A stretch of 54,086 bases of DNA from Syntrophomonas sp. (GTDB lineage: Bacteria > Bacillota > Syntrophomonadia > Syntrophomonadales > Syntrophomonadaceae). The stretch is taken from the NCBI GenBank assembly GCA_039679805.1, contig JBDKUD010000215.1:1-54086 (forward strand), in the 5' to 3' direction. Positions 19,128-48,248 of this stretch are shown here, piece after piece (the stretch's first letter is position 1; each line of letters begins with the position of its first letter). The position numbers were made by a program, and so were the translations under genes. The notes beneath the pieces were generated by a model. The model made no database searches. It saw nothing but the letters and a program-made list of their open reading frames with translations, and was not told the DNA's origin.

Positions 19128-19320
19128 ACAGGAATATTATTCTGAGTCGCATAGATTAATTTGATCTTCAAAAATACAGGTAACTAGTGGAGTTAATTGA
19201 TAAGTGAGGATCAAAATACAATAAGTATTATATTACCAATGCAGATAAGAGCAAAATAATTTGTCAAAAAATAAAACATTCTGATGAAAAAATATATTAT
19301 AATAAATACAACAATTAAAT

Positions 19321-19414
19321 ATCTCCGAGCCTACTAACCTAATGTAATACCATGGTTTTTAGGCCGTTAGGGTACATCGGGAAACTGGTGTGCCTCCCAG
19401 AGTGGAAAGGAGAA
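19321..19414 (+). promoter_or_regulatory. Moco/Wco-type riboswitch aptamer, copy A
   Basis: ATCTCCGAGCC...AGGGT-ACATCG-GGAAAC-TGGTGT-GCCTCCC-AGAGT-GGAAAGGAGA. The order of blocks matches the Moco RNA motif, and P1 is TCTCC/GGAGA. Confidence 0.7.
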
Positions 19415-19437
19415 GCTGAATACGGTTAGATACTGCG

Positions 19438-30528: not shown

Positions 30529-31269
30529 ATGAGCTTTAGTAAGAAAAAGTGTATTTGTTTTGTCTTAATCCTTCTTTTTTCAATCATTTTCGCTCCCTTA
30601 TCCCGTGCAGCGTCCAGCTCAGTCGCTCCAGGCAATGGCGACGGCCAGGGACAAAACGCAGATATAGCCCTGACCCTTGTTTCTTCCTCTGTGGCGGACG
30701 GCGCTACGAATGTACCGGTCAATCCTGTAATCCAGCTTAATTTCAATAAAAACGTTGTAAATATCGCGGTGATGGAAAACAATTCAAAATGCTTCCACCT
30801 TACCGATGAAAATGGTGCTCCAGTTCCGATAAGAATAATTTTCCCCGATGATCAAACGCAAAGCGAATTCAAACGTAATGTGTTCATAATTCCCCAGGAA
30901 AAACTGAAAATAAATTCAAAATACGAACTGGCAGTGGACAGTAAACTGTGCGCCAAGAATAACACCAACATAGACAGTGCCCATGTCATTACTTTTGAAG
31001 CTGGTGCTGCAGCGGCGGGCGAGCAGAATAAAGCCCTGCTTAAACTGGGTAATGACATTACAGTCTACAATACCGCTCTTAAAAAGACGGAATATTCTGT
31101 GCCGCACAAAAAAGAAGTACAAAATATTGACAAAACGCGTCAACCTGCTGAGAATAAAGTGCTGGATATTGATAAGTTGTCCTCAATACTCCTTTTCGTA
31201 ATAGCAGCGGTTTTTGTCTGTTCCAGCCTGTTTTTTATCCTTCAAAAGAGGAAAGGCAAGAATCAATAA
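30529..31269 (+). CDS. Small secreted Big_5 (SbsA-Ig-like) domain protein with C-terminal TM anchor
   Basis: Signal peptide, then GNGDGQGQ, then SSSVADGATNVPVNPVIQLNFNKNVV, and a C-terminal helix LSSILLFVIAAVFVCSSLFFIL. Paralogue of 46365-47138. Confidence 0.8.
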   Translation: MSFSKKKCICFVLILLFSIIFAPLSRAASSSVAPGNGDGQGQNADIALTLVSSSVADGATNVPVNPVIQLNFNKNVVNIAVMENNSKCFHLTDENGAPVPIRIIFPDDQTQSEFKRNVFIIPQEKLKINSKYELAVDSKLCAKNNTNIDSAHVITFEAGAAAAGEQNKALLKLGNDITVYNTALKKTEYSVPHKKEVQNIDKTRQPAENKVLDIDKLSSILLFVIAAVFVCSSLFFILQKRKGKNQ

Positions 31270-33662
31270 GCAGAATAACGCAGACACAAGAAAGTCATTA
31301 TCGCCTTTTTATAAATATTTTTCCCTTTATATATCTCTTCTGCAAGAAAATGCAGATAGCTGCTCATGCAAGCAAGCTCATCTTTTTCTATGCCGCGGTT
31401 TTCTGCGGCATAGCGTGCCCTATAGATATAACCCAGAACGCTTTCAATGGATAAACCGGGCGGATGCGGATATTTTTCATTTGCTTGCTTTAAAACGTTA
31501 TACGCAGTCAGGCCGTCTGTTTTTACACCGTCGAAGCGCAGCAGCCTAATCATACAGTAGTATATGTATAGTGCGGCTTTGCGTGAGTCTTGCTGAGTCA
31601 AGGCACGGTGTAATTTATTTTTATACCGTGCTCGCAACAGCAGGATAGCAACCACTAAGAAAATTAGTACCAGAGGGATCAGCAGCCATTTCTGATCAAA
31701 CCTGTTGGGATATTCCTGGGGCGGGGTTATAATATCATCTTTTACGGCTTTTTTATCCCTTAAGAATAAATATTTGGGGTTGTCGATCAGGATATCCTTT
31801 ACGCCGTTATTATTATCCTGGCTTTTGGTAAGAGTATAAAAGCCAGGCGTCACTTCAACAGGTGTCCAACCTATACCGTCCGTGTAAATCTCCACCCATG
31901 CATGTGCTTTTGAGTCGGGTATGTCCAAGGTAGTTGATCTCATATTAGTATAGATGTTGGTGTCCTTAGCCGATAGGTAGTAGCCCTCGACATATCGCGC
32001 AGGTATGCCGGCCTCACGCAGGAGCAGGGTGGCCAGGGTGGCGAAATGAATATCATAACCTTCTTTATCACTTAAGAAGCTCTCAATGACATTATCACCT
32101 GCCGGTATGGGGAGCACATCCAACGAGTAGGAAAAGCTCTCTGCAAAGTACTTGCGTATCATGTTGACCACCACACGGCGGTCGCTTTTTTTCATAGTGC
32201 CCAGAGCATCTCCTGAAAAATAATCCCTGAGCAGTTTATCATCTTGGGACGGGATTTGCAGATATCTATTGTAAACGAAATTACGGTATACCTTTTCTAA
32301 TTTAAGAAATTTTGAATATTGGGAAGTAGTTTTTATATTGTCAGACAACAGTGCCAATGTGTCAGCGCTGCCGTAGTCTTCGACAGGGGGCAGGCAGATG
32401 TTGTAAGAATATTGCCTGGTTCCCAGAAATCCGGGGCACAGTATGGCATCGTCTTTTTGAAAATGGGAGCTTTCATTTTTTAAGGCCGGGTCAGGGATTG
32501 CTTCATAAGGTGCATATATATACTTGCTGCTCAGTGCGATATTATCTATGGTAATTCTGCCCTTTTGCGCTCCATCTAATAGTGCTAAATATGTTCCCAG
32601 CTGTATTTGCGGATAAAACTTATTATAATGCAGCCACATGAATATCCCGGTATAATCACCCGCATAGGCTTGAGGTGAAAGGCCGCTCCATTTTCCATCA
32701 TTATATATGCTGCCGGTAAAGCTGCGCAGGTACAGAGGGCGCGGCTTTTCCATCGTTACCCGTAGGACGGTGTTTTCGGTATAATTGGCAGAACCTGCAT
32801 TTTTCAGGTTGCCAAAGGGAAGAGAGTATATTGTATCGCTGTTTCCGTTTTCATAACGCAAAGCATTGGCGGAGGATGTGATATCTGCTTTTAACTGTTC
32901 TGTTTTGAAGGAAGGCACATAGCGGTTCGCCGGGAATAGCAAAATCAGTACGAGAAAACAAAGCAACACTACAGAAGTGGATAAAACAATTGCTGTAATA
33001 CCAGGAATTTGCCAGTTCTGCTGGCGCACCGGGGAGCGGCCCTCAGTGCCTACTCCACAGGATACAAAAAGGCATACGCAGCCAAGGACGAGCAGAAGGA
33101 AAGGCAGCGGTTGCGGCTCGAAGCGGAGAGCAATGCCCAAAAGGGGCACCAAAGCTATAAAAACTACGGTACAGATGGCATGGCGTTTCATTACACCAAA
33201 TACGATGACAGCTGCCGATATGATAATCATTGGAGTTAGTGCCATGGTTACATGTAGTGCCGCATTCATTCCCGATGTTATAAAGGGGATGATTGAAAAT
33301 CCGAGCTGGTTCAGATGTTCTATGATACCGTTGGCAATAAGCAGATATCCGTCCCATACCGCACTATATTTTAAAACATATAACGCGGCGGCAGGCAAAA
33401 GGAGATAGATGAACACGATATGTGCGTTCATTTTTCTGAATAACAGCTGTAAAATGGCGGGGGAAAGCAGGATGACGGGAAAAAGTATTCCGCCGGAATA
33501 TACAATGTCAACCATGGATAGCAAGGAAAACCAGCTTCCGGTGCAAAGGACGATACACAATAATAACTCACCAATAAGCATCATGTTCATGCCTAAATTG
33601 TCTATATCTGGTTTTTGCGTTGTTATCTTCATACAGGAGGTGTTTCTGCTTTTTTCTATCAT
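31263..33662 (-). CDS. Polytopic transglutaminase-like (TgpA-type) protein with a non-canonical active site
   Basis: 799 aa with multiple N-terminal TM helices. Core reads GYDIHFATLATLLLREAGIPARYVEGY...HAWVEIY..GWTPVEVTP, where the position of the canonical GxCxHFA cysteine is Asp. Confidence 0.8.
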   Translation of the reverse strand: MIEKSRNTSCMKITTQKPDIDNLGMNMMLIGELLLCIVLCTGSWFSLLSMVDIVYSGGILFPVILLSPAILQLLFRKMNAHIVFIYLLLPAAALYVLKYSAVWDGYLLIANGIIEHLNQLGFSIIPFITSGMNAALHVTMALTPMIIISAAVIVFGVMKRHAICTVVFIALVPLLGIALRFEPQPLPFLLLVLGCVCLFVSCGVGTEGRSPVRQQNWQIPGITAIVLSTSVVLLCFLVLILLFPANRYVPSFKTEQLKADITSSANALRYENGNSDTIYSLPFGNLKNAGSANYTENTVLRVTMEKPRPLYLRSFTGSIYNDGKWSGLSPQAYAGDYTGIFMWLHYNKFYPQIQLGTYLALLDGAQKGRITIDNIALSSKYIYAPYEAIPDPALKNESSHFQKDDAILCPGFLGTRQYSYNICLPPVEDYGSADTLALLSDNIKTTSQYSKFLKLEKVYRNFVYNRYLQIPSQDDKLLRDYFSGDALGTMKKSDRRVVVNMIRKYFAESFSYSLDVLPIPAGDNVIESFLSDKEGYDIHFATLATLLLREAGIPARYVEGYYLSAKDTNIYTNMRSTTLDIPDSKAHAWVEIYTDGIGWTPVEVTPGFYTLTKSQDNNNGVKDILIDNPKYLFLRDKKAVKDDIITPPQEYPNRFDQKWLLIPLVLIFLVVAILLLRARYKNKLHRALTQQDSRKAALYIYYCMIRLLRFDGVKTDGLTAYNVLKQANEKYPHPPGLSIESVLGYIYRARYAAENRGIEKDELACMSSYLHFLAEEIYKGKNIYKKAIMTFLCLRYSAY

Positions 33663-33686: not shown

Positions 33687-34847
33687 TTATATATTTACTA
33701 TTAATTGGCCAAAACTATCGGCAGCAACAGGGACAAAGCCATTATCGGCGTTGATAGTATCTTCCATGGCGCAGTTTTCATTGGCTACAACGAGGATGGT
33801 TCTGATAGCTTCACCGGGTAGCACGTCTGAAATGCCGGCGGTATTCCGGCATGCTGTAACATAGTATATGACCATACGGCGGCAGGCAAAGCTGCTGTTT
33901 GCATAACAGTCGAGAGCCACCAAAGGTTTCGCGTAACCTTTGGCAGAAAGTAAAACAGGGATAAATGTATCCAGTTCCTCAACGGAGGATATCTGTTCCA
34001 TGTGTAAATAACCATCGTCGTACCATGCTATATTATGACTGATTCCCAGCCGCAAAAAAGACAGCGACAGGGAGATAAATACCTCCAGGCAGCAGGAAAG
34101 CAACTTTTCATCCTCTTCAGCTCCAATGCTCTGCGTTTCTAACAACAGTACCACGGGGTAATCAAGTGGCAGTCCAAGATCACGCACTATAAGGTTGTCA
34201 GTTTTGGCTGACAGCTTCCAGTGTACCTTCCTTAAATCATCTCCCTGGGCATATTCGTGAAGTGCAAAGATCTCGGTTTTATCGGAACCGGATTTATACT
34301 GGGAATATATGTTTCCCTCTTCAGACGCAACACGATTGACCATATTTATATTGAATTCCGCAAGGCGCGGATAGACCAGACAGCATTTTTCCCTGGGAGC
34401 AGCTACGTTCAGGCAGAACAGCCCGAATAGGTCGTAGACCTTGACCTGACGGGTAGAGACAATGAGCTTTCCCGCACACAGGTTGGCAAGGGAAAGAGAA
34501 ATTTCCCCCGAAGAACGCCCTCTAACAGATGTGAAAACTTTCATAGACGTTTCTTTACCCAATAGCTGGGTTTTGATGGAGACCTCCCACTCGATTTTCA
34601 GGGCGGGAAAGGGGGAGCTATTTCTGACGTTATAGTTAATACTTTTTTTACCTTCCGGCATTATCAGCGCGGGGGCACTTAGCTCAAGACTAATATACCG
34701 TGCGGTATAAAGAAGCAGCATAAAGGAAACACATGGTGCTGTAACCGAAAACAGCAGCAGCAGCAAAGCAAGATGGCTGTTCGACATTATGTATACGAGT
34801 GCGATTATGGCAAGGAGAATGAAATACCCTATGCGTTCCTTTAGCAT
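33687..34847 (-). CDS. DUF58 domain protein
   Basis: DDLRKVHWKLSAKTDNLIVRD matches the DUF58 signature (D.R.I.WK.tAr...L.vr.). It has N-terminal TM helices and lies between MoxR and the transglutaminase-like gene. Confidence 0.8.
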   Translation of the reverse strand: MLKERIGYFILLAIIALVYIMSNSHLALLLLLFSVTAPCVSFMLLLYTARYISLELSAPALIMPEGKKSINYNVRNSSPFPALKIEWEVSIKTQLLGKETSMKVFTSVRGRSSGEISLSLANLCAGKLIVSTRQVKVYDLFGLFCLNVAAPREKCCLVYPRLAEFNINMVNRVASEEGNIYSQYKSGSDKTEIFALHEYAQGDDLRKVHWKLSAKTDNLIVRDLGLPLDYPVVLLLETQSIGAEEDEKLLSCCLEVFISLSLSFLRLGISHNIAWYDDGYLHMEQISSVEELDTFIPVLLSAKGYAKPLVALDCYANSSFACRRMVIYYVTACRNTAGISDVLPGEAIRTILVVANENCAMEDTINADNGFVPVAADSFGQLIVNI

Positions 34848-34862: not shown

Positions 34863-35795
34863 CTAAAGAATAGACGGAGCGGGCACTTCGGCTAGAACTG
34901 TATCAAGCATCGATTGTGCCGTTTCCTTCATTATTTTAGCCTGCGGCTTCAGCACAAGACGATGACAGCATACATCTGTAAAAACTTCTTTTATATCTTC
35001 GGGAATGACAAAATCTCTGCCATTTAAGAATGCACACGCCTTTGCCATCTGTATCAGGGCAAGTACTGCACGGGGGCTGACTCCCTGTTCAATAAGGGGA
35101 ATGTTCCTCGTAGCTTCGCACAGAGTCACTGCGTAGCGTATCACATCGTCGGCCACAAAAACGGTTTGTATCTGTGAGCGAAGGGCAAGCAGTTCTTCTT
35201 TTGAAACTGCAGGTTGGATGTTGTTTAAAGGGTTTTCCGTTTGACGGCTTTTTATTATGTCTATCTGGCTTTCCAGGGCAGGGTAGCCCATGGACAGACG
35301 CACCATGAACCGATCAAGCTGAGAATTGGGCAGGTTTTGAGTTCCTATACTTCCCGTGGGGTTCTGTGTAGCTATACAAATAAATGGATCGGGAAGAGGG
35401 CGGGTAACACCGTCCACCGTTGCGGATCCTTCCTCTAAAACCTCTAAAAGAGCAGCTTGTGTTTTGGGGGAGGTGCGGTTTATCTCATCAGCGAGTAACA
35501 TATTGCAGAATACTGCGCCGGGAAGGTATTCAAATTTGCCGCTTGGCTTGTTGTACACGCTGTAACCGACGATGTCACTTGCCATAGTATCAGGAGTGAA
35601 CTGAATGCGGCGGCAGTCTAATCCCATGCTCTTTGAAAAAGCCAGGGCGAGGGTGGTCTTGCCCACGCCGGGAACATCCTCGAGCAGGATATGCCCGCCA
35701 GCAAGGACAACCATAAGCACCTTTTTAATGATAACATCTTTACCAACTATGGCCTTTTTAACTTCGGATATGATCTGATTGGCTTGTGTAAGCAT
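34863..35795 (-). CDS. MoxR-family AAA+ ATPase
   Basis: Walker A EDVPGVGKT and Walker B LLADEINR. I chose the ATG at 35795 (RBS GGAGAGGG 8 nt upstream) over the ORF-track start at 35849. Confidence 0.85.
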   Translation of the reverse strand: MLTQANQIISEVKKAIVGKDVIIKKVLMVVLAGGHILLEDVPGVGKTTLALAFSKSMGLDCRRIQFTPDTMASDIVGYSVYNKPSGKFEYLPGAVFCNMLLADEINRTSPKTQAALLEVLEEGSATVDGVTRPLPDPFICIATQNPTGSIGTQNLPNSQLDRFMVRLSMGYPALESQIDIIKSRQTENPLNNIQPAVSKEELLALRSQIQTVFVADDVIRYAVTLCEATRNIPLIEQGVSPRAVLALIQMAKACAFLNGRDFVIPEDIKEVFTDVCCHRLVLKPQAKIMKETAQSMLDTVLAEVPAPSIL

Positions 35796-35875: not shown

Positions 35876-35906
35876 TGAAAAAGCCGGATGCGAAAACTCA
35901 TCCGGC
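35876..35906 (-). terminator. Intrinsic terminator in the moxR leader (expression platform of copy B)
   Basis: Minus strand reads GCCGGATG-AGTTTTCG-CATCCGGC followed by TTTTTC, about 80 nt upstream of the moxR start. Confidence 0.7.
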
Positions 35907-35930
35907 TTATAACTTTAGCAGCCAAATAAT

Positions 35931-36017
35931 TATCCTTTCCGCCATGGGAGGCATGGCCGTTTCCAGCCAAACCCTGTTCTCTCGCCATAGTCGTGATGAC
36001 CTCAGGCAAGGAGAATC
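35931..36017 (-). promoter_or_regulatory. Moco/Wco-type riboswitch-like aptamer, copy B (divergent variant)
   Basis: Minus strand reads GATTCTCCTTGCC...AGGGT-TTGGCT-GGAAAC-GGCCAT-GCCTCCC-ATGGC-GGAAAGGA. The 5' CCGAG block is replaced by CCTTG. Confidence 0.5.
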
Positions 36018-36212
36018 GGATAGATATTAAATTTAAACAATATTAAAACTTTCCTATATTTTATTACAGTTTAATTTATATCAGTTTTTAGCTAAAAGTC
36101 AAGATAAGTAATTTTTTGTTGTTTATTGTTTATTAATAGTATATAAATAGGAGGAGGAGAATAAATCCTTTCATTGAAGAATATAACTATATATTTTTAT
36201 TATTTTGGAGTG

Positions 36213-36297
36213 TATTTCCGAGTCTTTTGTCCTGTTGCTATGAAAGACCAAAGGGTGTCTTCGGAAACGGACGCGCCTCCCATGGCGGAAAGGAAAA
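36213..36297 (+). promoter_or_regulatory. Moco/Wco-type riboswitch aptamer, copy C (first of a tandem pair)
   Basis: TATTTCCGAGTC...AGGGT-GTCTTC-GGAAAC-GGACGC-GCCTCCC-ATGGC-GGAAAGGAAA. P1 is TTTCC/GGAAA. It is followed by hairpin CTTTTCA/TGAAAAG (36317-36338) with no T-tract. Confidence 0.6.
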
Positions 36298-36379
36298 CGG
36301 AATATATTAATAGAAGCTTTTCAGAAAGGGGTGAAAAGTGCCATTCCCTAAATAAGTCAATTTTATAAGCTGTGAGCAG

Positions 36380-36477
36380 AATTTCCGAGTCTTTTGTCCT
36401 GCGGCATTCTTGGCTATGGCGAAAGATCAAAGGGTGTATTTGGAAACGAGTACGCCTCCCATTATGGAAAGGAGAAA
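36380..36477 (+). promoter_or_regulatory. Moco/Wco-type riboswitch aptamer, copy D (second of a tandem pair)
   Basis: AATTTCCGAGTC...AGGGT-GTATTT-GGAAAC-GAGTAC-GCCTCCC-ATTAT-GGAAAGGAGA. Confidence 0.65.
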
Positions 36478-36493
36478 ACTGAATTTAGAAATT

Positions 36494-36537
36494 GAAGCTT
36501 TTTCCATTCTTTATTGGGAAAAGCTTTTATTATTTTT
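36494..36537 (+). terminator. Intrinsic terminator (expression platform of copy D)
   Basis: GAAGCTTTTTCC / GGGAAAAGCTT stem followed by TTATTATTTTT. Confidence 0.7.
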
Positions 36538-36665
36538 AGAAAGAGGTGAGAAGTACTAAACAATAAGTTTGTAAGATTAAACTAGTCGAATGAGACAAAA
36601 TTTAGTGGACTCATTACCTAATCCCCAATCAAAGAATTATAGCAGGGTAGAAGGAGAGTTGAAAA

Positions 36666-39600
36666 TTGAGGTTAAAAAGGATCCCACTTATTCTTTTATT
36701 ATCCCTAATCATGGTTTTAACTGTAGGGGGCCTGACGGTCTATGCTGGCACAAACCTGCCGAATGTTGTGAGTTATGGCGTATATAATTTTGATCCCAAC
36801 AGCAACGATGTGACGACTACTGTTCCCCAAGGAACCGTTGTGTCAACGGGTAATGACGGGGTGATTTATAATAATCCGCCATGGACTACACTGACAGATG
36901 TGCCTTATGTTTTCGGCAACAATGTTGGCATCGGAATTGAATTTGCCGTGAACGTGATACCAGAAGCCTATTGGACTGCTAATCAGGCTTGTTTTCATAT
37001 GTATGACGCATCTAATACCCCTGTTCCCATCAACGTAATAAGATTAGGTACTGTCTACGATGGTACGAATGGAAACAGAAACTACATATTTGTGGTCCCC
37101 CAAGGCCAACTGCAGCCTGTAAGCACATATAAAATAATTATAGATTCAACGCTGCAGTCAAATAATACCATGACAGCCGGTAAACAACAGGAAATTACGC
37201 TTTCAACCGCTGCTGCGCCCGATACTACTGCGCCATCTGTGAGCAGCAGCGACCCGGCGAACGCAGCTACAGGAGTAGCAATCAACAAAACCGTAGCGCT
37301 TACCTTCAGTGAGAACATATCAGCAGGCAGTACCTATGATCAGATCAGCTTTAAAGACGGAAGCAACGCTGATGTACTGTTTACTAAGGGCATCAGCGGC
37401 AGCACGTTAACCCTGGATCCAGTATCCGACCTGGACTACTGCACCTATACCGTGACTATACCCGCTGATGCTGTAAAAGATGCCGCAAACAATGACTTAG
37501 CCAATGAATACTCCCTGACATTTAGCACCGGACTCAGCGCGACAATTTCAAGGTCCAGAGCAACAGCCGGAGCAAGTTTTACTATAAACATTACCGGAGC
37601 TAAAGACGCTTCCGATACGCTTTTGACCGGTAACAATACAGTCACTGTGACTAATGGAGGAGCCGAAGTATATCGTGGCGATGTTGCGTTTACTGATGGC
37701 GCAGCAAACGTTACAATCCCGGCAAGTTCTACACCAAACAGCATTACCACAGTAGGGACCTATAACTTAACAGTAGCTATTGCCGGAGTGACTGAGCAGC
37801 CGACCGTTCCTTTGACGATCAATGCAGGGTCTATTGACTCCACGCAGTCCACTGCGGTTATCGACCAGGCTTTAAGCAAGGGGACTACCCGGGCAATTGC
37901 AGTAACGCTTAAAGACATATTTGGAAATCCAATAGCCAACAAAAATATCAAAACAAAGGTTACTATAGCCAACAACTATTCAATAACAAATGAATCTTAT
38001 ACTGTTGACGGAACAACAATGACGGCGTCAGGATTTACAACAGCTGTATATACTGATGTCAGTGGACAATATACAGTAAATGTGGTCATGCCGGGCGCCA
38101 TTGATCCTGGCGACGGAGTATCGATCCAGATAGCACAAAATAACGGCACATCATTTATCGGCGATCCGTTTGCATACTATGAACCTATCCCAACACCGAT
38201 GGTGACCAATGCAACGTCTGATGCCACTCATATTGTGTTAACCATGGATCAGCCCTTGTTAGGAACAGCAGCCGATACAAATGCCTTTACCATACACGGG
38301 GCGGCGAGCAATCCGACAGTTGCGAATGCTGTAGTATCCGGAACCAATGTATCGTTAACCTTGAATGCAGCCATTGCTTACAATGAGACGATTACACTGG
38401 ATTATGCCAGAACAGGCATTAATGATTTAAATAACGGACCTGGTTCTCAAGTGGCCGACTTTACTAGCCAACCGGTCATCAACAATACACCTGAACATGC
38501 TGCAGCGCCACTATTAGTCAGTGCAGCTTCCAATGTCCAGGGAAATGTTATAACGGTAATCTTTGATAAAGAAATGGCTGCTCTGCCGGCAGCACCAGCC
38601 GGCTTTTCCGTTGCAGTCGACGGCGCCAGCGATGTGGTTACTGAGGTTGCAAACAATACGGATAGAGCCAAAGTTGAACTGCTGTTGACGACAGCAATAA
38701 ATTACGGACAGACAGTAACAATCTCCTATAGCCCGGGAACGGTAACCGCACTTGATAATGGTGCTTTAGCCGGGTTTACCGATCAGGCTGTAACAAATAA
38801 TACAATACAGGACGGCTATATTACGACACTGCTTGGTGATGGTTCTTCAGGTAATTCTGGGGATAACGGACCGGCAACCTCAGCCACGATGGCAAGGACT
38901 ATTTATGGCTGCACAGTTGTAGATGAGATGGGGAATATCTATATTTCTGATTCATCCAATGGCAAGGTGCGAGAGATTGCCGCGATTACCCATACCCAGT
39001 TCGGAATTAACATGACGGCAGGGAATATTTATACTGTAGCTGGAACTGGGTTAACTAGATCTTATGCGGTAACTGATGAAGGACAACTTGCAACAGCAGT
39101 AAATCTGATGAATTCTGCAAATGGTATTGCTGTTGATGATTCGGGAAATCTCTATATTGCTGATACCCAAAACAGTAGGATCCGTGAAGTGGCCAACACA
39201 GACCATAACCAATATGGCATTACTATGACTACGGGATGTATTTACACCATAGCCGGTGTTGGGGCAACAGGTCTTACATCTAACACTTATACAACTGCCA
39301 TAGCGGAAGAAGGGGTGGCTGCGACAACTGCCCACCTGTGCAATCCGAATGCACTAATTTTTGACACGACTGGTAATCTGTATATTGTAGATCAAAACAA
39401 CAACAGGATCAGAAAGATGGATACCAGCGGAATTATAAATACAGTTGCAGGCACAGGAACTACAAATCCTACTGCTGATAGCGGGCCGGCGATCAGCTTT
39501 AACATGAGGCCTGCAGCCATAACCTTTGATAGTTTAGGAAATATATTTATCGGAGACGGGATATGCGGTAGAATTTACAAAATGGACACCGGTGGGAATA

Positions 39601-42254
39601 TCACGACCTATGCTGGTACATTAATCCCGAGTGGCTCTAGTTATACCATTAAAGATGTAGGCAGCGCGCCTCCTCTCACTGAAGTCGGTTTCAGACCCGT
39701 CAGTTTGATGTTTGATAGTGCGGACAACTTATATGTGGCGGAAGGCAACTGGGACCGCGTCAGAAAGATCGGTATCGATGGCAGTGTTACTTTAGCCGCA
39801 GGGTATGGGTATGCAGCCGGTGTAGCTAATGTGTTTAATGGTGATAATATTCCGGCTACTGCAGCATTGCTGAATAGTGCCCAATTTGCGTCCCTGGATA
39901 AATGGGGAAACATGTATATTATGGATAATCAAAGCATGCGGATTCGTTTTGTTAAAAACCCGCAGGTAGTAGCGGAAGCACCTCCGGTTGTTAACAGCGC
40001 AGTAACTTCTGATGAGACACATATTGTACTCACCATGAGCCGAGCATTATTAGGCACTGCAGTAAACCCCGCAGCTTTCACAGTATCAGGAGCAGCTTCA
40101 AATCCTACAGTAACCGCAGCAGCAGTTTCAGGTACCAGTGTGACACTGACACTAAGTTCAGCAATTGCTTATAACGATACGATAACCGTAAGTTACGCAA
40201 AAACAGGCTTCGACAGTGCAGCTGGGTATAGCAATTTGACTGCAGTGGAAAACTTCACCAATCAGCCAGTAACAGTAACCGTGCCTGCTCCGGGAACTGT
40301 TGCTGTACCGACGGCTGTACCCTCAGGGACTGCTGTAACGGCAGGCACTCAGGTAACGCTGACAACGATGACTGCAGGTGCAACCATATATTACAGCCTG
40401 GACGGCAGCGACCCGACAGCAGCAAGTACAGCATATAACGGCCCGATTACCATTAATAATCCTGTAACCATCAAGGCTATCGCAGTTAAGGACGGTATGA
40501 TAAACAGTACAATCCTGACAGTGTCCTATACAATCAAAAGTGGCAATGGTGGGCCTTCTAGTTTGCCCACTTGGCCGGATGATGCTACATTGACAGTTAG
40601 CAAAAATCAAACTACAGCAACCCTTACCTGGACGGAAGCCACCGGTGAGGTGACCAAATATAGAATATATCGCGGCGTGTCTGGAATTGCTGATACACTG
40701 ATTGCTACAATTGATGCTCCGGCAACAACTTATACAGATACAACACTACAATCAGGTGGTTATACTTATATCTTCAAAGTTGAAGCCGGGAATAACGCAG
40801 GCTGGACCAACAGCGGACCCAGCGCCCAGACTGAGGGCGGACAAAACCCCTTGATTCTTGATGGGGCCTATTTAACTACAGCCACTCCCAGCAGCAGCAC
40901 TTCTGATACAGGAGAATCCGTTGATGACAGCACTAGTGTACCGGTCAAACCAACGATCAAATTCATATTTGAAAGAAGTGTGGCACAAGATGAACTCTGG
41001 TCAAACAATAAGTTATGTTTTACCATGAAAGACAGCTCTGGTGCCAGCGTTTCTTTAAATGTTTTTAAAATTTCAAATGGTACTGAAATCAACCCGAACG
41101 AAAGGCATAATTTATTTATCACGCCCTTAAGCAATCTGACTGCGGGAAATACTTATTATATTACTATAAGTAAAAATTTACAGGCCAATAACGGCAAGAC
41201 GCTTGGTGAAGCTTATGACGGCAAAGATATTGTAATCAGCTTTACTGTGGCCGGGGGTACAAATTCCGGCGGGGGCACTGTTACTACGGATGGTCCCACC
41301 TATACCAACGGTTACGGCTCTGTCGATCCGGCTGTCGGGGCGAGCGTCGCCCTGGATGAAGCAGCCATGGTAGTCATACCGCCCGATGCCCTTAAAGAAA
41401 CTGGTTCTGTCAATGTAAACATCAAGAAGGTAACCACATCGCCAGCAGTTCCAGCAGGATTTAAAGTGGCCGGCGATGTGTACGAGTTTAGTGTAGGAAA
41501 TAAGACATCCTACAGCTTTGCTAAAAGTGTTGCTTTAACGTTTAATTTTGACGCCTCCCAAATCGAGGCGGACGAAGTTCCGGAAATTTACTACTATGAC
41601 GAAGTCCTGAAAAAATGGGTCGGCATCGGGGGCACAGTGTCCGGCTCGACCATCACTGTGCAGGTAAATCACTTTACGAAGTTTGCCGTACTGGCTGTCC
41701 CCAAAGCCGTAGAACCAGTAAAACCAGTAGTACCAGTAGTATCATTTACCGATGTTAACGGAAATTGGGCGGCAGCTAATATAACAAAATTAGCTGCAAC
41801 AGGTGCAATTAAGGGATATACGGACGGAACCTTCAAGCCGGACAACAATATTACCAGGGCTGAGTTCGTTACGGTTCTGGTCAAAGCACTTAAATTAGCG
41901 CCTGCAAGCGGAAAAACCTTCAACGATACTGCAAACAGCTGGAGCAAAGATTACATTGCAACCGCTGTTGCCAATGGTATTATCAATGGTTACAGTGATA
42001 CCACATTTGGCCCTGATGATCCCATCACCCGCGAACAAATGGCGGTGATAATTGTTAAGGCTGACAAGTTAAGCAAAATTCCGAGTGGAAAAATATTTGC
42101 CGACAACGGTGCAATTTCAGCCTGGGCCAAAGATGCTGTCAGCACGGCCAGCGGAAACAGTATTATCGCAGGGTACGCAGACAATACCTTTAGACCCCAA
42201 AATTATGCTAGCAGGGCTGAAGCAGTTACGGTCATTGTCAAAATATTGAAATAA
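36666..42254 (+). CDS. 1862-aa secreted cell-surface protein: Big_5/SbsA-Ig modules, Big_1-like and SwmB-like Ig domains, NHL-repeat propeller, chitobiase-C-like domain, FN3, three SLH domains
   Basis: TTG start 9 nt after AAGGAGAG, with a signal peptide. APDTTAPSVSSSDPANAATGVAINKTVALTFSE (Big_5). NHL repeats GNLYIADTQNSRIREV and similar. GATIYYSLDGSDPT. SLH triplet at 41745-42251. Confidence 0.9.
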   Translation: MRLKRIPLILLLSLIMVLTVGGLTVYAGTNLPNVVSYGVYNFDPNSNDVTTTVPQGTVVSTGNDGVIYNNPPWTTLTDVPYVFGNNVGIGIEFAVNVIPEAYWTANQACFHMYDASNTPVPINVIRLGTVYDGTNGNRNYIFVVPQGQLQPVSTYKIIIDSTLQSNNTMTAGKQQEITLSTAAAPDTTAPSVSSSDPANAATGVAINKTVALTFSENISAGSTYDQISFKDGSNADVLFTKGISGSTLTLDPVSDLDYCTYTVTIPADAVKDAANNDLANEYSLTFSTGLSATISRSRATAGASFTINITGAKDASDTLLTGNNTVTVTNGGAEVYRGDVAFTDGAANVTIPASSTPNSITTVGTYNLTVAIAGVTEQPTVPLTINAGSIDSTQSTAVIDQALSKGTTRAIAVTLKDIFGNPIANKNIKTKVTIANNYSITNESYTVDGTTMTASGFTTAVYTDVSGQYTVNVVMPGAIDPGDGVSIQIAQNNGTSFIGDPFAYYEPIPTPMVTNATSDATHIVLTMDQPLLGTAADTNAFTIHGAASNPTVANAVVSGTNVSLTLNAAIAYNETITLDYARTGINDLNNGPGSQVADFTSQPVINNTPEHAAAPLLVSAASNVQGNVITVIFDKEMAALPAAPAGFSVAVDGASDVVTEVANNTDRAKVELLLTTAINYGQTVTISYSPGTVTALDNGALAGFTDQAVTNNTIQDGYITTLLGDGSSGNSGDNGPATSATMARTIYGCTVVDEMGNIYISDSSNGKVREIAAITHTQFGINMTAGNIYTVAGTGLTRSYAVTDEGQLATAVNLMNSANGIAVDDSGNLYIADTQNSRIREVANTDHNQYGITMTTGCIYTIAGVGATGLTSNTYTTAIAEEGVAATTAHLCNPNALIFDTTGNLYIVDQNNNRIRKMDTSGIINTVAGTGTTNPTADSGPAISFNMRPAAITFDSLGNIFIGDGICGRIYKMDTGGNITTYAGTLIPSGSSYTIKDVGSAPPLTEVGFRPVSLMFDSADNLYVAEGNWDRVRKIGIDGSVTLAAGYGYAAGVANVFNGDNIPATAALLNSAQFASLDKWGNMYIMDNQSMRIRFVKNPQVVAEAPPVVNSAVTSDETHIVLTMSRALLGTAVNPAAFTVSGAASNPTVTAAAVSGTSVTLTLSSAIAYNDTITVSYAKTGFDSAAGYSNLTAVENFTNQPVTVTVPAPGTVAVPTAVPSGTAVTAGTQVTLTTMTAGATIYYSLDGSDPTAASTAYNGPITINNPVTIKAIAVKDGMINSTILTVSYTIKSGNGGPSSLPTWPDDATLTVSKNQTTATLTWTEATGEVTKYRIYRGVSGIADTLIATIDAPATTYTDTTLQSGGYTYIFKVEAGNNAGWTNSGPSAQTEGGQNPLILDGAYLTTATPSSSTSDTGESVDDSTSVPVKPTIKFIFERSVAQDELWSNNKLCFTMKDSSGASVSLNVFKISNGTEINPNERHNLFITPLSNLTAGNTYYITISKNLQANNGKTLGEAYDGKDIVISFTVAGGTNSGGGTVTTDGPTYTNGYGSVDPAVGASVALDEAAMVVIPPDALKETGSVNVNIKKVTTSPAVPAGFKVAGDVYEFSVGNKTSYSFAKSVALTFNFDASQIEADEVPEIYYYDEVLKKWVGIGGTVSGSTITVQVNHFTKFAVLAVPKAVEPVKPVVPVVSFTDVNGNWAAANITKLAATGAIKGYTDGTFKPDNNITRAEFVTVLVKALKLAPASGKTFNDTANSWSKDYIATAVANGIINGYSDTTFGPDDPITREQMAVIIVKADKLSKIPSGKIFADNGAISAWAKDAVSTASGNSIIAGYADNTFRPQNYASRAEAVTVIVKILK
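38818..39958 (+). other. NHL-repeat beta-propeller region of the 1862-aa protein
   Basis: Six repeats of the type GNIYISDSSNGKVREI, GNLYIADTQNSRIREV, GNLYIVDQNNNRIRKM, GNIFIGDGICGRIYKM, DNLYVAEGNWDRVRKI and GNMYIMDNQSMRIRFV. Confidence 0.8.
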
Positions 42255-42282
42255 CGAAGAGCTTAAATTAAAAGTAAATAAG

Positions 42283-42319
42283 GGGGCGGGTTCGCTTTTC
42301 GTGGCTCGCCCTTCTTTTT
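42283..42319 (+). terminator. Intrinsic terminator after the 1862-aa gene
   Basis: GGGCGGG...CTCGCCC stem followed by TTCTTTTT. It resembles the terminator at 28292-28326. Confidence 0.65.
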
Positions 42320-42378
42320 AAAATGGTTGTTGGCAATTATATCAGCAAATACCGATTTGTTTTTAAGGGGGAGAGACA

Positions 42379-44403
42379 ATGCTTTTTGAAAAAAGAGGCC
42401 CATTGATTTCCATGATCATTCTGGTTGCAATGCTAACGCTGACATTTCCGGTTTTTGCGTTTACCACCGATATTTCCCTGACCAGCGTTAGTGTAAATGG
42501 AAATACTTATCTGGTGACCGGGGATAATGCCGTAGTGAACGAGTCTTTTAATGCTGGTGATCAACCGAGGTTCATTTTGAATTTCAGTCATAATGTGAGC
42601 AATACACTCGACGCAAACCTTGCTAGGCTGTCTATGGTTAAGATCACTTCTGGCGTCGAGCAGGTAATCCCCACAAGCACCTATGGCGGGCTGACGGGTA
42701 TGGGACTGGTAATAAGGCCGGTCAGCGGGCTTGAGAATGGTAATTATAAGATCATAGTGGCACAGGGTATCCAGGCGAATGCTGGTACGATCGAAGAAAC
42801 CTACAGTATATATTTCAATGTGGGAGGCAGCCCGTCCGGCACAGGTGGCGGGATGATAAGTGAAGATGCCCATAAAATAGTCTTTGATATCAAGGGTATT
42901 GCAGCAGATACCAAATATAACGCAACCGTAAAACAGGATAATCAGATCTTTTATCCTCAAAGTGAGAATACTTTCTTTCTTGAACCAGGTGACTATACCT
43001 ATGCCGTGAGTGCATCAGGTTACGTTGCAGTTACCGGCGAGCTTACTGTCAGCAAAGACGAAACCATTCCCATCACCATGACCGACCATGTTCTTATCAC
43101 TTTCAGCACTACGCCTGCTGATGCATCGGTGCGTGTCAAGGTGGGGCAGAATGAATTTATCGATCCATATCAAGTAAATATATTTAAACTTACACCCGGT
43201 ATAGAGTATACATATATCGTTGAGGCGAAAGGCTATATCACGAAAGCTCAGCGATTCACACCGATGGTAAATGAAACGAAAACCGTCCAGCTTTTAGTGG
43301 GCGGTGCAGCAGGCAGCTATTGCGAGCAGGGCAACGGCGGCAATACTCTGACCATGCTTGTACCGGGGTCTTCCCGAATCACTGTCAAGGAGGATAACTT
43401 AGATTATTCTTACAATCTGATATCCGGCTCTTTTGACGGGAGTAAGGAGATTACTTTCGGTTTTACTATGGGAGCGGGGGTTAATAATTTTGGCGACGGT
43501 TCTGGCTTTAAAACCAACAATATGCCCAAGATCGCGGTCTACAAGAGCTATAAGAATGGACCGCAGGGTAACCCGGTAGCGGATTATAAGTCAGGCAACG
43601 GCACTCTCAAATACATAGGATTTAATGCAGGAGCACCCGAGGGGAAGCTTATTACCATCGGCCTGACGAAGGGAGCTTTAAAGGACGGTACTTATGTTCT
43701 TGTATTTGGCAAAAACTTATGCGGAAATAATGTAAACAAAACCCTGGGTAAGGATGTCGTGTTTGAATTCGCAATAGGCCAGAGCGGCAGCAATACTACA
43801 GTAACTGAGCCGTCCCAACCGGTTACTCCGGTAACCGAAGCTGTTTTTTCTGATGTCACGGAAAACAGCTGGTATAAAGAAGCTGTTAACTATGTAGTAA
43901 AAAATGGATTGTTCAAGGGCACTTCAGACAGCACCTTTGATCCCGACCTGCCCATGAACAGAGGTATGTTCGTAACGGTATTGGGAAGGCTGGCTAAAAT
44001 TGACGGCAATTCGGTATACACAGCCCTAGGTTTTACCGATGTGAAGGCGGACGCGTACTATGCCAAATATGTTGCCTGGGCAGCGGAAAAAGGTATAGTT
44101 TCCGGCACCGGGAATGGGAATTTCTCTCCTGACAGGAGCATAACCCGTCAGGAGGCGGCTTCTATAATGTTTAGTTTTTCAAAACCAATGGGTTATGATC
44201 TAAACATTGCGGATAATGCAGCAATGAACAAATTCAATGACGCTTCCCGCGTGGCTGTATGGGCAGCAGATGCAGTGAACTGGGTATTAAGTAAAAAGGT
44301 GATGGGCGGCAGCAACGACGGTTCCCTTAATCCCGGGGGAACTGCTACCCGTGCCCAGGTGGCCCAGATAATTATGAACTTCGTAAATAATGCGGGAAAA
44401 TAG
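42379..44403 (+). CDS. 674-aa secreted SLH-anchored protein with Big_5-like and PEGA-like beta-sandwich modules
   Basis: RBS AAGGGGGAGAG and a signal peptide. PEGA-like repeats (EPGDYTYAVSASGYVAVTGELTV and TPGIEYTYIVEAKGYITKAQRF). SLH triplet at 43846-44400. Confidence 0.85.
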   Translation: MLFEKRGPLISMIILVAMLTLTFPVFAFTTDISLTSVSVNGNTYLVTGDNAVVNESFNAGDQPRFILNFSHNVSNTLDANLARLSMVKITSGVEQVIPTSTYGGLTGMGLVIRPVSGLENGNYKIIVAQGIQANAGTIEETYSIYFNVGGSPSGTGGGMISEDAHKIVFDIKGIAADTKYNATVKQDNQIFYPQSENTFFLEPGDYTYAVSASGYVAVTGELTVSKDETIPITMTDHVLITFSTTPADASVRVKVGQNEFIDPYQVNIFKLTPGIEYTYIVEAKGYITKAQRFTPMVNETKTVQLLVGGAAGSYCEQGNGGNTLTMLVPGSSRITVKEDNLDYSYNLISGSFDGSKEITFGFTMGAGVNNFGDGSGFKTNNMPKIAVYKSYKNGPQGNPVADYKSGNGTLKYIGFNAGAPEGKLITIGLTKGALKDGTYVLVFGKNLCGNNVNKTLGKDVVFEFAIGQSGSNTTVTEPSQPVTPVTEAVFSDVTENSWYKEAVNYVVKNGLFKGTSDSTFDPDLPMNRGMFVTVLGRLAKIDGNSVYTALGFTDVKADAYYAKYVAWAAEKGIVSGTGNGNFSPDRSITRQEAASIMFSFSKPMGYDLNIADNAAMNKFNDASRVAVWAADAVNWVLSKKVMGGSNDGSLNPGGTATRAQVAQIIMNFVNNAGK

Positions 44404-44428
44404 GACTATCAGAAAATATATTATAGCA

Positions 44429-44469
44429 AAGGTGAGGCGCCCCTTCGGGGACTGCTTCACCTTTATTTT
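44429..44469 (+). terminator. Intrinsic terminator after the 674-aa gene
   Basis: AAGGTGAGGC...GCTTCACCTT with an inner CCCC/GGGG stem, followed by TATTTT. Confidence 0.7.
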
Positions 44470-44772
44470 CTAATGTAATGACATTTTGAGTTGTTGGCTT
44501 AGCGATAGTATCCTCTTCCGACTCCTTTAAACTCACACTTTCATCATATCCCTAATATTTGTTTATTCTCTCATTTATGGTCACAGCTCACTAAACTCTT
44601 CAGCTTGTCTTCTTATAGATTCCCAGCTTGCAGGCCCATATCCCGGCAGAATATGGCAGCAGATTATTTCAGCAATAATAGACCGCGTTGTCCTAAAGGC
44701 TGACGAGTCTTTAATTACATGTCTTGGCCCGCTATTTAAGGATTTATTAACAACCGAGTCCATCTATTACCA

Positions 44773-44802
44773 TTGACCTATGTGCGTGATAGCCTTGATA
44801 AT
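44773..44802 (+). promoter_or_regulatory. Candidate sigma-A promoter for the 44849 gene
   Basis: TTGACC (-35), an 18-nt spacer, then GATAAT (-10). No riboswitch-like element lies between it and the gene. Confidence 0.4.
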
Positions 44803-44848
44803 ATGACATGGATTATAAACCTTGTATACAAAGGAGAGTGAAAAATCC

Positions 44849-46081
44849 ATGCATATCCTTAAACGTAATCCTTTATTATCTACATTTTTAATAATACTGC
44901 TTTTATTTACGTCACTAATTGCAGGTGCCCAGACAGTACTGGCAGGTGACGGCAGCGGCGGCGGGAAAAATCCACCTTTATTACGGAGTGCCTGTTTGAC
45001 GACTATTAATAATAATGTCTCTGCCACAGGTGATTCTTTGGGAGAGAATATGTCGCTGGCCAATAATCCTCCTACGATTAGAATTGAATTTGCAACCAAT
45101 ATTGCAGATAACACAGTATGGAATGATAACAAAAATTATGTAACGTTATATGACGGTGACCATAAGGCAGTATCTTCTGATGTAAGCAGAATTGACCCTA
45201 CCGTAACTTTTGCGGAGAGAAATTATATTTTTGTTAAACCTTCGGCAGCATTACAACCGGGGTCATATACAATTGTTGTAGATGCCAGGCTTACTTCCAA
45301 GAACGGAATATCATCTGGTCAGGAACAAACGGTAAGTTTCAGTGTTGCTGGAAATACTGACAGCAATAATAACACTAACAACGATACCGGCAGCGGTACC
45401 AATGCTGGTAATAATAACAATATTGGTAATAATACCGATACCAATACAAACAATAATAACAATGATACCAATGATACCAATGATACCAGTAACAACAACG
45501 ATACTGGCAGCAATACTAATAACAGTAATAACAGCAATAATGATAGCAGTATTGTTTTAACAGACATTAGCGGACATTGGGCTGGAAACAATATTAATAA
45601 ACTCGTTAAATCAGGTGTTATCAGCGGTTATCCCGATGGGACATTTAAACCTGATAAAACTATCAGCAGGGCAGAGTTTGTAACTATTATTGTTCGTGCT
45701 TTCAAACTGCCGCCCAAAGCAGGCAAAGTGTTTGCAGATACGGCTAATCATTGGGCTAAGGACTCTATTGCCACAGCCGCTGCATACGGGATAGTTAATG
45801 GTTATAACTCAACTAAATTTGGCCCCGACGATAATATTACCCGGGAACAAATGGCAGTAATCTTAGATAAGGCTTTGAAACTTAACAATGCTGCAGGCGG
45901 CAAAAATTTCATCGACCAGGCTAAGATTTCAACATGGGCTAAAGATGCCGTTGTCAGAGTAAATCAAAATGGCATATTTGCAGGTTATCCGGATAAATCA
46001 TTTAAACCCAAAGCTAGTGCTGCTAGAGCAGAAGCAGCGACTGTTATTTTAAAAGCATTAGATAAAGTAGGAAGTAAATAG
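44849..46081 (+). CDS. Secreted Big_5-like domain protein with Asn/Thr/Asp-rich linker and three SLH domains
   Basis: I chose ATG 44849 (RBS AAGGAGAG) over the ORF-track TTG 44822. Signal peptide, then GDGSGGGK. Low-complexity linker at 45351-45549 and SLH triplet at 45557-46078. Confidence 0.85.
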   Translation: MHILKRNPLLSTFLIILLLFTSLIAGAQTVLAGDGSGGGKNPPLLRSACLTTINNNVSATGDSLGENMSLANNPPTIRIEFATNIADNTVWNDNKNYVTLYDGDHKAVSSDVSRIDPTVTFAERNYIFVKPSAALQPGSYTIVVDARLTSKNGISSGQEQTVSFSVAGNTDSNNNTNNDTGSGTNAGNNNNIGNNTDTNTNNNNNDTNDTNDTSNNNDTGSNTNNSNNSNNDSSIVLTDISGHWAGNNINKLVKSGVISGYPDGTFKPDKTISRAEFVTIIVRAFKLPPKAGKVFADTANHWAKDSIATAAAYGIVNGYNSTKFGPDDNITREQMAVILDKALKLNNAAGGKNFIDQAKISTWAKDAVVRVNQNGIFAGYPDKSFKPKASAARAEAATVILKALDKVGSK

Positions 46082-46101
46082 ATTAAGTTTAAAACTAAAT
46101 A

Positions 46102-46192
46102 ATCTCCGAGCCTGTTAACCTGAGGTTTAATGGTTTACAGGCCGATAGGGTGCAGTGGGAAACTGCTGTACCTCCCAGTGCGGAAAGGAGAA
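46102..46192 (+). promoter_or_regulatory. Moco/Wco-type riboswitch aptamer, copy E
   Basis: ATCTCCGAGCC...AGGGT-GCAGTG-GGAAAC-TGCTGT-ACCTCCC-AGTGC-GGAAAGGAGA. It is a close paralogue of copy A and begins 20 nt after the upstream stop codon. Confidence 0.7.
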
Positions 46193-46214
46193 GCTGATAC
46201 GGTTGGAATATCGC

Positions 46215-46245
46215 GGCGAAGTGCTTTGTGCAGTTCGCCTTTTTT
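46215..46245 (+). terminator. Intrinsic terminator (expression platform of copy E)
   Basis: GGCGAAGTG / CAGTTCGCC stem (one mismatch) followed by TTTTTT. It is nearly identical to the copy A terminator. Confidence 0.75.
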
Positions 46246-46364
46246 ATCGGCTCGCGGGAAATGTTTCATTATTATATAAGCGTCAATAAGATGATTAGTT
46301 AATATCTTTAAATTTGCTCCATATATCACAAAAACTGATGAATTAATTTCAAGGGGGTTATATA

Positions 46365-47138
46365 ATGATAAATGGGATTAGGGGAAAGAGACCATTAATA
46401 TTAGTCTTATTGGCTGTATTATGCTGCATGTTTATAGCCCTGCCGGTATTTGCCGCTGAAGGTGATGGAAGCGGAGGAGGCAGGGATGTACCTCTTGCTC
46501 TGGCTTCATCCAGTCTGGCTAATGGACAGAGCAATGTCCCGGTTATGGCCAATATTAATCTTGCTTTTAACAAGAATGTAGTTAACCTGGCAGTCAAAGA
46601 TAATAATATGAAATGTTTCAGCCTTTCCGGTAATGGCATTAGTGTCCCCATTCAGGTGATTATGCCGGATGATCAGGTTGATTTCGAACATCGCCGGAAT
46701 ATTGATATTGATCCTTTGCAGGATCTGAAACCAGGTACTCTTTATAAATTAGTAATTTCAGGTCAGCTCCAGGCCAAAAACGGAATGAGCTTGGGTACTC
46801 CTGTGTCTGTCAGCTTTACAACTGCAGGTGCTGCCAATGTAAATCAAAACACCAGCACCGGACCAAATACCGGCAGCATTAAGTCCGGCTCTGCTCAAAC
46901 AACACAGCCAACAACATCAGCTGAAAAGGTAACAACTGAGAAAGCTGCCAAAGAAAATACCAAGGCAGCTGCAGAGAATACTAAAGCAAAAGCAGCAAAA
47001 GCAAAAACAAAATCTGCAGCAAAAACTAAAAGTGAAGAAAAGGAAACTAAATCGACCAGTACTAAAGGCATTGCTGCTGCAGCAGGACTGATAATAGCAG
47101 CTGGAGTATATGGGTATTATAGATTCAGTTATAAATAA
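46365..47138 (+). CDS. Small secreted Big_5 (SbsA-Ig-like) domain protein with Lys/Ala/Thr-rich spacer and C-terminal TM anchor
   Basis: RBS AAGGGGG and a signal peptide, then EGDGSGGGR, then SSSLANGQSNVPVMANINLAFNKNVV. C-terminal helix GIAAAAGLIIAAGVYGYY. Confidence 0.85.
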   Translation: MINGIRGKRPLILVLLAVLCCMFIALPVFAAEGDGSGGGRDVPLALASSSLANGQSNVPVMANINLAFNKNVVNLAVKDNNMKCFSLSGNGISVPIQVIMPDDQVDFEHRRNIDIDPLQDLKPGTLYKLVISGQLQAKNGMSLGTPVSVSFTTAGAANVNQNTSTGPNTGSIKSGSAQTTQPTTSAEKVTTEKAAKENTKAAAENTKAKAAKAKTKSAAKTKSEEKETKSTSTKGIAAAAGLIIAAGVYGYYRFSYK

Positions 47139-48245: not shown

Positions 48246-48248
48246 ATT

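Follow-up and report, generated by a model that had tools for sequence, protein, structure and literature searches.

P3-less Moco/Tuco (RF01055) aptamers around a divergent region between a moxR operon and SLH surface-protein genes in Syntrophomonas

A 54,086-nucleotide (nt) stretch of DNA from Syntrophomonas sp. (GenBank assembly GCA_039679805.1, contig JBDKUD010000215.1, positions 1 to 54,086 of the forward strand; hereafter, the window) contains a divergent control region between a moxR-DUF58-tgpA operon on the minus strand and genes for SLH-domain surface proteins on the plus strand. The AT-rich core of this region is flanked by three aptamers of RF01055, the Rfam family of the molybdenum cofactor/tungsten cofactor (Moco/Tuco) riboswitch: B faces moxR, and C and D lie in series ahead of an SLH gene. 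This arrangement agrees with the preliminary description of the sequence, which had proposed a divergent control region with one aptamer directed toward the moxR operon and two toward the SLH gene. We consider it likely that B and D are complete OFF switches of the type lacking stem P3, and that C is a lineage-specific duplicate without a switch of its own. This reading builds on the class membership of the aptamers, their covarying structure, their terminators, a conserved association with particular genes, and two deletions in C.

Class membership, core nucleotides and covariation

The whole window was scanned against Rfam, in which RF01055 has a gathering score of 36 bits. The scan returned five matches to this family (A to E) and one thiamine pyrophosphate (TPP) riboswitch; for other RNA families, it gave just sub-threshold chance matches in the region, to PyrR and two microRNA models. 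Aptamer B (35916..36033, minus strand) scores 61.9 bits (E-value 1.6e-12), C (36204..36311, plus strand) 44.7 bits (E-value 1.8e-07), and D (36371..36490, plus strand) 62.2 bits (E-value 1.3e-12). In the covariance-model alignment, the positions of stem P3 are gaps in all five copies, and B, C, and D are members of the P3-less RF01055 subgroup, whose RNAs are the proposed sensors of the tungsten cofactor (Tuco).

To examine the structure, we aligned 16 copies, namely the five of the window and eleven from related contigs (L numbers in the following denote the contigs and loci compared). The consensus of stems P1, P2, P4, and P5 accounts for standard pairs in 85.7% of cells, and 14 pairs vary on both sides. 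The covariation score is 0.289, compared to 0.168 in shuffled alignments, and was reached by none of 500 shuffles; sliding the pairing partners by one to three columns roughly halved every measure, with covariation falling to 0.152 or less. A local covariance model, R1, built on the same 16 copies, scores B, C, and D at 104, 75, and 102 bits, respectively. Thirty columns are invariant, including UCC-A, GGG, GGAAA, CCUCCC, and GGAAAGGA. Measured against the RF01055 core (UCCGAG, AGGG, GGAAAC, CCUCCC, and GGAAAGGA), C and D are complete, and B has a single, compensated change (CCGAU). The GAAA tetraloop on P4 and its receptor in P2 (CCUnnG...UAUGG) are both present in B and D.

The change in B had been described as a replacement of CCGAG by CCTTG, with the suggestion that B might be a degenerate or specificity-altered variant. 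We rejected the CCTTG variant as a register error: in the covariance-model alignment, B reads CCGAU, and the CCUUG in question sits further 3' within P2. The base altered from G to U is the first of P2, and an A on the opposite strand matches it, making this the only U-A at pair 19-59. As to recurrence, CCGAU is shared by the closest relative, L083, and the pentamer also varies in other family members (CCUAG, CCAAG). A degenerate or specificity-altered B is further contradicted by its score, which resembles that of D, and by the aptamer and terminator kept in front of moxR in five further contigs.

As RNAs, B, C, and D are ordinary RF01055 members and hold nothing new for riboswitch mechanism. 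The E. coli moaA Moco riboswitch belongs to the same family, has the same core (CCGAG, GAAA tetraloop and receptor, CCUCCC, GGAAAGG), and is likewise an OFF switch. It differs in having P3, in masking the ribosome-binding site (RBS) and so acting on translation, and in controlling cofactor synthesis, whereas B and D are P3-less and of the terminator type.

Terminator leaders of the divergent region and their conservation

By the Rfam boundaries, B and C are separated by a spacer of 170 nt (36034..36203), which forms the AT-rich divergent promoter core and confirms the one noticed earlier; GC content is 0.16-0.24 across 36000-36200. The B-C-D arrangement recurs in two separate Logan assemblies (L001 and L002) and is thus not an assembly artefact. 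Promoter-like hexamers are found on both strands: TTGAAG-18-TATTAT at 36174-36203 on the plus strand, immediately 5' of C, and TTGACT-18-TAAATT at 36102-36073 on the minus strand. A block at 36150-36200, adjoining the -35 element of the surface-gene promoter, is conserved in L083 (about 340-400, minus strand) and in the core of L004. It contains an imperfect palindrome, GGAGAATATATTCC, which has a 1-nt deletion in the window version; the block may be an operator through which a protein regulator adds to the control by the riboswitches.

Toward moxR, aptamer B is followed by an intrinsic terminator (35877..35908, minus strand) consisting of AAGCCGGAUG, a loop, CAUCCGGCUU, and UUUUU. Its stem runs from 35908 to 35881 and its U-tract to about 35877, with a folding energy of -19.3 kcal/mol (z -3.1), and it is kept in L003, L004, L009, and L083. 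The moxR start codon is an ATG at 35795 with the RBS GGAGAGGG, and the same start is used in relatives; the terminator and the lead into moxR had both been recognized in the preliminary description. A candidate antiterminator spans 35898..35929 on the minus strand: UUAUUUGGCU (35929-35920), the tail of the 3' strand of B's P1, is predicted to pair with AGCCGGAUGA (35907-35898), the 5' arm of the terminator. The resulting 10-bp helix is seen in folds of transcripts cut before the terminator 3' arm, and a 14-bp counterpart exists in L004. Downstream, the operon comprises moxR itself (34863..35795, minus strand), encoding an AAA_3 MoxR-family ATPase of 310 amino acids (aa; PF07726, E-value 6e-51); a gene for a DUF58-like protein of 386 aa (33687..34847, minus strand); and, last, a gene for a TgpA-like transglutaminase membrane protein of 799 aa with Transglut_core and TgpA_N domains (31263..33662, minus strand). 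The DUF58 match is weak (E-value 0.0014), and a 35%-identical ortholog in L062 clears the Pfam cut-off. The operon ends before a Big_5 paralog (30529-31269, plus strand) convergent with tgpA.

Toward the SLH genes, aptamer D is followed by an intrinsic terminator at 36494..36537 (plus strand) with a 13-bp stem, an 8-nt loop, and a T-run, the stem part lying at 36494-36527, so that D has the full terminator ascribed to it earlier. The 5' arm of this terminator, CUUUUUCC, is complementary to GGAAAGGAGAAA, which covers the 3' strand of P1 together with the invariant purines next to it. In the antiterminator pairing, UUUUUCC of the 5' arm faces GGAGAAA of the P1 3' strand, and this alternative helix also forms in folds of transcripts cut before the terminator 3' arm. 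The same design, in which a 5' arm with UUUCC stands opposite the invariant GGAAAGG, is found in the orthologous or paralogous leaders of L005, L003, and L083. The first gene after C and D (36666..42254, plus strand) encodes the 1862-aa surface protein, with Big_5, SWM repeats, an NHL propeller, and three SLH domains; in L005, an orthologous single aptamer precedes its Big_5/SWM/NHL ortholog. Two further SLH genes follow on the plus strand (42379-44403 and 44822-46081), and no terminator was found between the SLH genes from 36666 to 46081.

Between the terminator of D and the SLH gene lies a Shine-Dalgarno-like (SD-like) block, AGAAAGAGGTGAGAAGTAC (36538..36556, plus strand), about 110 nt 5' of the real RBS. 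Such a block also occurs after C (36323-36341) and in L005 (3618-3790), L003 (1607-1775), and L083 (60-190; all three on the minus strand), and AGAAAGAGGTGAGAAGTAC is conserved in five surface-gene leaders. In these five leaders, no start codon for a leader peptide is present within usable distance behind the block, which could be a ribosome-binding element of the mRNA-stabilising STAB-SD type.

Thus B and D, and not C, have the layout of transcription-termination OFF switches, in which a terminator is combined with an alternative helix that engages the P1 3' strand; in the window as a whole, terminators stand behind A, B, D, and E. We infer the OFF logic and the ligand from this layout and from the class. 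With abundant cofactor, the bound pterin would hold P1 closed and leave the terminator arms free to pair, and transcripts would end near 35877 (B) and 36537 (D). With scarce cofactor, the P1 3' strand would pair with the terminator 5' arm, and polymerase would continue into moxR-DUF58-tgpA in the case of B and into the SLH surface-protein genes in that of D. The proposed logic agrees with E. limosum, where P3-less terminator-type copies (fetABC1 and focA) are up-regulated under tungsten limitation (PMC11725836), a response that amounts to de-repression. These leaders belong to the same family and are built, as here, of a P3-less aptamer and a terminator hairpin with poly-U.

The gene association of B is conserved in relatives. 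The nearest genomes are Desulfoscipio geothermicus metagenome-assembled genomes (MAGs) and Pelotomaculum sp. PtaB.Bin104. A P3-less aptamer lies directly before moxR in L003, L004, L005, and L083/L084, whose MoxR proteins are 92-93% identical, and also in L009, a Thermoanaerobacteraceae MAG with 71% MoxR identity. The divergent neighbours vary by genome, each with its own aptamer: SLH/fn3, dockerin, cohesin/dockerin/BclA_C, and cohesin/CWB2 proteins, or the Big_5/NHL ortholog. Surface-protein genes with their own aptamer are present in L003, L004, and L005, and those of L003 have separate single aptamers.

For a wider comparison of gene contexts, we collected 87 MoxR loci and ran R1 on the 77 more distant ones. 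Aptamers were detected in four: L009, directly before moxR, and L015, L016, and L062; L087 was added as a further aptamer-headed operon in a later look-up. In L015, L016, L062, and L087, which represent other Clostridia, a single operon begins with the aptamer, 4-5 kb upstream of moxR, and has the order (Ig-like protein)-TCKD-like-FecCD-ATPase-Peripla_BP_2-MoxR-DUF58-TgpA. In the window, corresponding genes follow aptamer E (46092..46206, plus strand; P3-less, with terminator), which precedes Big_5, FecCD, ABC ATPase, Peripla_BP_2, and TCKD-like genes. Identity to the L062 counterparts is 40% for the TCKD-like protein and 36% for the binding protein. Because these proteins are orthologous, the E and B operons represent the split parts of a module whose genes stand together in other genomes. 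The TCKD-FecCD-MoxR module is present in 10 of the 87 MoxR loci (L015, L016, L062, L085, L086, L087, L012, L013, L022, and L032). The MoxR-DUF58-TgpA triad elsewhere in Bacillota has the same three genes in the same order as the B operon, but most of these loci are without a riboswitch; among the 87, RF01055 occurs only in this lineage of the window and its close relatives, in L009, and in the four FecCD-linked operons.

FecCD-type importers under RF01055 are on record in D. hafniense (PMC2408646 supplement) and E. limosum (PMC11725836). The E. limosum targets include an 'iron' ABC importer of this type, like the operons of aptamer E and of L015, L016, L062, and L087. The targets of B, C, and D differ: moxR-DUF58-tgpA and giant SLH proteins are unmentioned in PMC11725836, and three copies share one intergenic region. 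The gene contexts in the 2008 supplement (PMC2408646) include no MoxR, DUF58, transglutaminase, or SLH, and literature searches linking Moco/Tuco riboswitches with S-layer, MoxR, or Pelotomaculum gave nothing relevant. The RNA class, its P3-less subgroup, control by terminators, and tandem arrangements have all been published; MoxR-DUF58-TgpA and wall-anchored surface proteins as targets are absent from the 2008 gene-context table and from the papers that the searches returned.

Copy C and competing explanations

Copy C is 81% identical to D and begins 167 nt before it, close to the spacing of about 170 nt reported earlier. Alignment with D and homologous leaders reveals that C copies the whole D-type leader unit, from ~35 nt upstream of P1 through the SD-like block, and has suffered two deletions. 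One takes out 14 nt of distal P2, so that its helix and the AUGG half of the GAAA-tetraloop receptor are gone; in the 2008 survey, the receptor is missing in just 2 GAAA-loop Moco RNAs (PMC2408646). The other removes about 44 nt that correspond to the terminator, leaving a gap where D and the orthologous leaders carry theirs. What follows C is, as had been noted, just a hairpin without a T-tract (36316..36339, plus strand; -8.4 kcal/mol, z -1.8), composed of a terminator stump, GAAGCUUUU, and the SD-like block; 10 of 200 shuffles fold as well. The stump (36308-36322) is 93% complementary over 15 nt to the 3' arm of the D terminator (36518-36532), 195 nt away.

C is seen only in the window lineage. 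The homologous position holds a single, complete riboswitch in L083/L084, L004, and L005, which makes the C+D tandem lineage-specific. Neither the SLH gene N-terminus nor the DUF58-like protein yielded relatives in metagenome scans, and the pair could therefore not be traced beyond the window's own species. C would have arisen by duplication of a D-type unit comprising the -10 region, aptamer, terminator, and SD-like block, with the deletions occurring later. Transcription from the adjacent promoter probably runs through C and on to D, and C would have no switch of its own, leaving D alone as the element that most likely decides for the SLH genes. With moderate confidence, we conclude that C probably lacks an independent regulatory output.

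Several observations weigh against the reading of B and D as switches and C as a silent duplicate. The competing helix of B touches just the outer extension of P1, sparing the inner 5 bp, and coexists with the aptamer in equilibrium folds, so that control would have to be kinetic; moreover, if moxR is transcribed from a closer site resembling an extended -10 element, B's P1 would lack its outer portion in the transcript. The region has 5 promoter-like hexamers, compared to 3.7 +/- 1.7 in shuffles, which is the level of chance, and we therefore leave the start sites unclaimed. We know of no established link between moxR or SLH-protein genes and molybdenum/tungsten (Mo/W) cofactor metabolism. 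B, C, and D are not in the usual RF01055 location, 5' of genes for Mo/W cofactor synthesis, transport, or use, and their tie to such genes is indirect only, through the FecCD operons that bear RF01055 elsewhere. A universal riboswitch on FecCD-MoxR operons was also considered and rejected, with 5 of the 9 assessable operons being without one. Finally, C itself is well preserved: its score exceeds the Rfam cut-off, at the columns that 14 or more of the 15 other copies share, its sole departures are the four deleted receptor bases, all other conserved core bases being kept despite 19% divergence from D, it retains 10 of 11 P4 pairs though several differ from D, and, folded alone in silico, its consensus structure lies within 1 kcal/mol of the minimum free energy (MFE), the comparison of such folds across copies being unreliable where MAFFT mis-registers P2.

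Several observations in the last group also speak for a working tandem of C and D, in which the SLH leader would respond more steeply, or over another range, because C still binds the cofactor. C could do so by pairing of its stump with the 3' arm of the D terminator, by Rho-dependent termination or pausing, or by an effect on the folding of D. The stump-to-arm helix occurs in the MFE fold of the full leader, and blocking C's P1 3' strand in silico lowers the P1 probability of D from about 0.6 to 0.07. For Syntrophomonas wolfei and Geobacter metallireducens, Regulski et al. (2008, PMC2408646) described P3-less Moco RNAs in tandem and in triplicate, same-class aptamers standing serially in one leader with terminator-type platforms, as here; the earlier remark that same-class tandems are uncommon is correct as far as it goes, but they were already published for RF01055. 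In S. wolfei, however, a separate terminator follows each of the first two copies, whereas the upstream C has lost its terminator and half of its receptor; the S. wolfei operon, furthermore, serves molybdopterin (MPT) synthesis and Mo/W transport and not surface proteins. C has neither a terminator nor an RBS-sequestering platform, and so does not form a tandem of complete riboswitches with one platform per aptamer, such as the S. wolfei triple or the TPP tandems; being confined to one lineage, the pair is also unlike the cooperative glycine-type tandem, in which two mutually contacting aptamers with a single platform are kept together across species, and has no comparative support. In the ensemble of the full leader, the P1 probability is 0.001 for C versus about 0.5-0.6 for D, and the stump complementarity follows automatically from the duplication, of which it is most simply a by-product. 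We therefore regard a working tandem as unlikely. The 'digital' response previously suggested for C and D is correspondingly weak, and the decayed duplicate that had been named as its counter-case comes closer to the sequence of C, except that C keeps its other core bases.

Two further explanations concern the group as a whole. The P3-less aptamers might sense something other than the mature W/Mo cofactor, such as a pterin precursor, a salvaged pterin, or a FecCD-imported metal-chelate. Binding of Tuco by P3-less RNAs rests on gene correlation (PMC2408646) and expression data (PMC11725836) and was never shown directly; classical moa, mod, tup, or tungstoenzyme genes stand behind none of the five window aptamers, and the recurrent partners are functionally unassigned TCKD-like proteins and a FecCD/Peripla_BP_2 importer, which belongs to a transporter class that takes up large organic chelates. 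The aptamers nonetheless match the RF01055 core at all conserved positions and are indistinguishable in sequence from P3-less copies before tupABC or tungstoenzyme genes elsewhere, and the E. limosum FecCD operons share a regulon with tupABC and WOR1 (PMC11725836), so that we hold a different ligand to be very unlikely. It is harder still to credit that the short terminated leaders act as end products, either small RNAs working in trans or sponges for the cofactor, with control of the downstream genes being secondary. Five copies lie within 27 kb, four of them with strong terminators, and the platform-less C would add just binding capacity; yet each copy is in sense orientation directly 5' of an operon, the competition between P1 and terminator, a hallmark of cis control, is conserved, and no target complementarity turned up, although none was sought.

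Possible role of the targets and other features of the window

The interest of the region lies in its targets, that is, in a cofactor-sensing switch conserved before moxR-DUF58-tgpA and several families of wall-anchored proteins. The MoxR-DUF58-TgpA triad is present in very many Bacillota, and to our knowledge, no function has been established for it. The joining of FecCD, TCKD-like, and MoxR-triad genes in one operon is a lead that these genes serve W/Mo or pterin acquisition, and suggests a cell surface that is remodelled according to cofactor status in syntrophic, sulfate-reducing bacteria related to Pelotomaculum and Desulfoscipio. The five aptamers of the window would form a regulon through which a shortage of cofactor acts on wall-anchored Ig/propeller proteins, a FecCD-type importer, MoxR-DUF58-TgpA, and TCKD-like proteins.

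More speculatively, this regulon could be organized around an undescribed uptake or salvage machine for W/Mo-cofactor starvation, leading from surface proteins through the FecCD importer to the TCKD-like proteins and the MoxR triad, a scheme that we put forward as rather doubtful. A metal-chelate or pterin would first be bound at the cell surface by the wall-anchored Ig-like/propeller proteins (SLH, cohesin/dockerin, CWB2); much as in the Isd haem relay of Gram-positives, the cargo would then be handed on to the FecCD/Peripla_BP_2 importer; and the TCKD-like and MoxR-DUF58-TgpA proteins would process or insert it. Were this true, it would provide the first physiological role for the widespread MoxR-DUF58-TgpA operon, and the E. 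limosum 'iron transporters' under Tuco control would need re-interpretation.

The module's TCKD-like protein is about 290 aa long and 'methanogenesis marker 11'-like, and a convergent Big_5 gene accompanies the module. In the window, the E operon has its Peripla_BP_2 binding protein encoded at 49093-50187 and three tandem TCKD-like paralogs at 50225-52574, within a module region that extends over 46092-52574. L009 has two more P3-less aptamers (426-548 and 2739-2858), which makes three within 6 kb upstream of moxR; the additional ones precede a TCKD-like gene with an amino-acid-kinase-family gene, and an ABC ATPase pair.

The remaining aptamer, A (19311..19428, plus strand), is P3-less, is followed by a terminator at 19437-19461, and precedes a gene (19639-28257) whose 2872-aa product combines RCC1 propellers with seven fn3 and three SLH domains. 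With 81% identity between them, A and E make up a subtype apart from B, C, and D. Divergent from A, across the gap 18874-19310, lies a gene of the MFS_MOT1 molybdate-transporter family (17749-18873, minus strand) without an aptamer of its own. The TPP riboswitch (9418-9524; 72.3 bits) is an ordinary one and precedes thiD/thiE-fusion and thiC genes.

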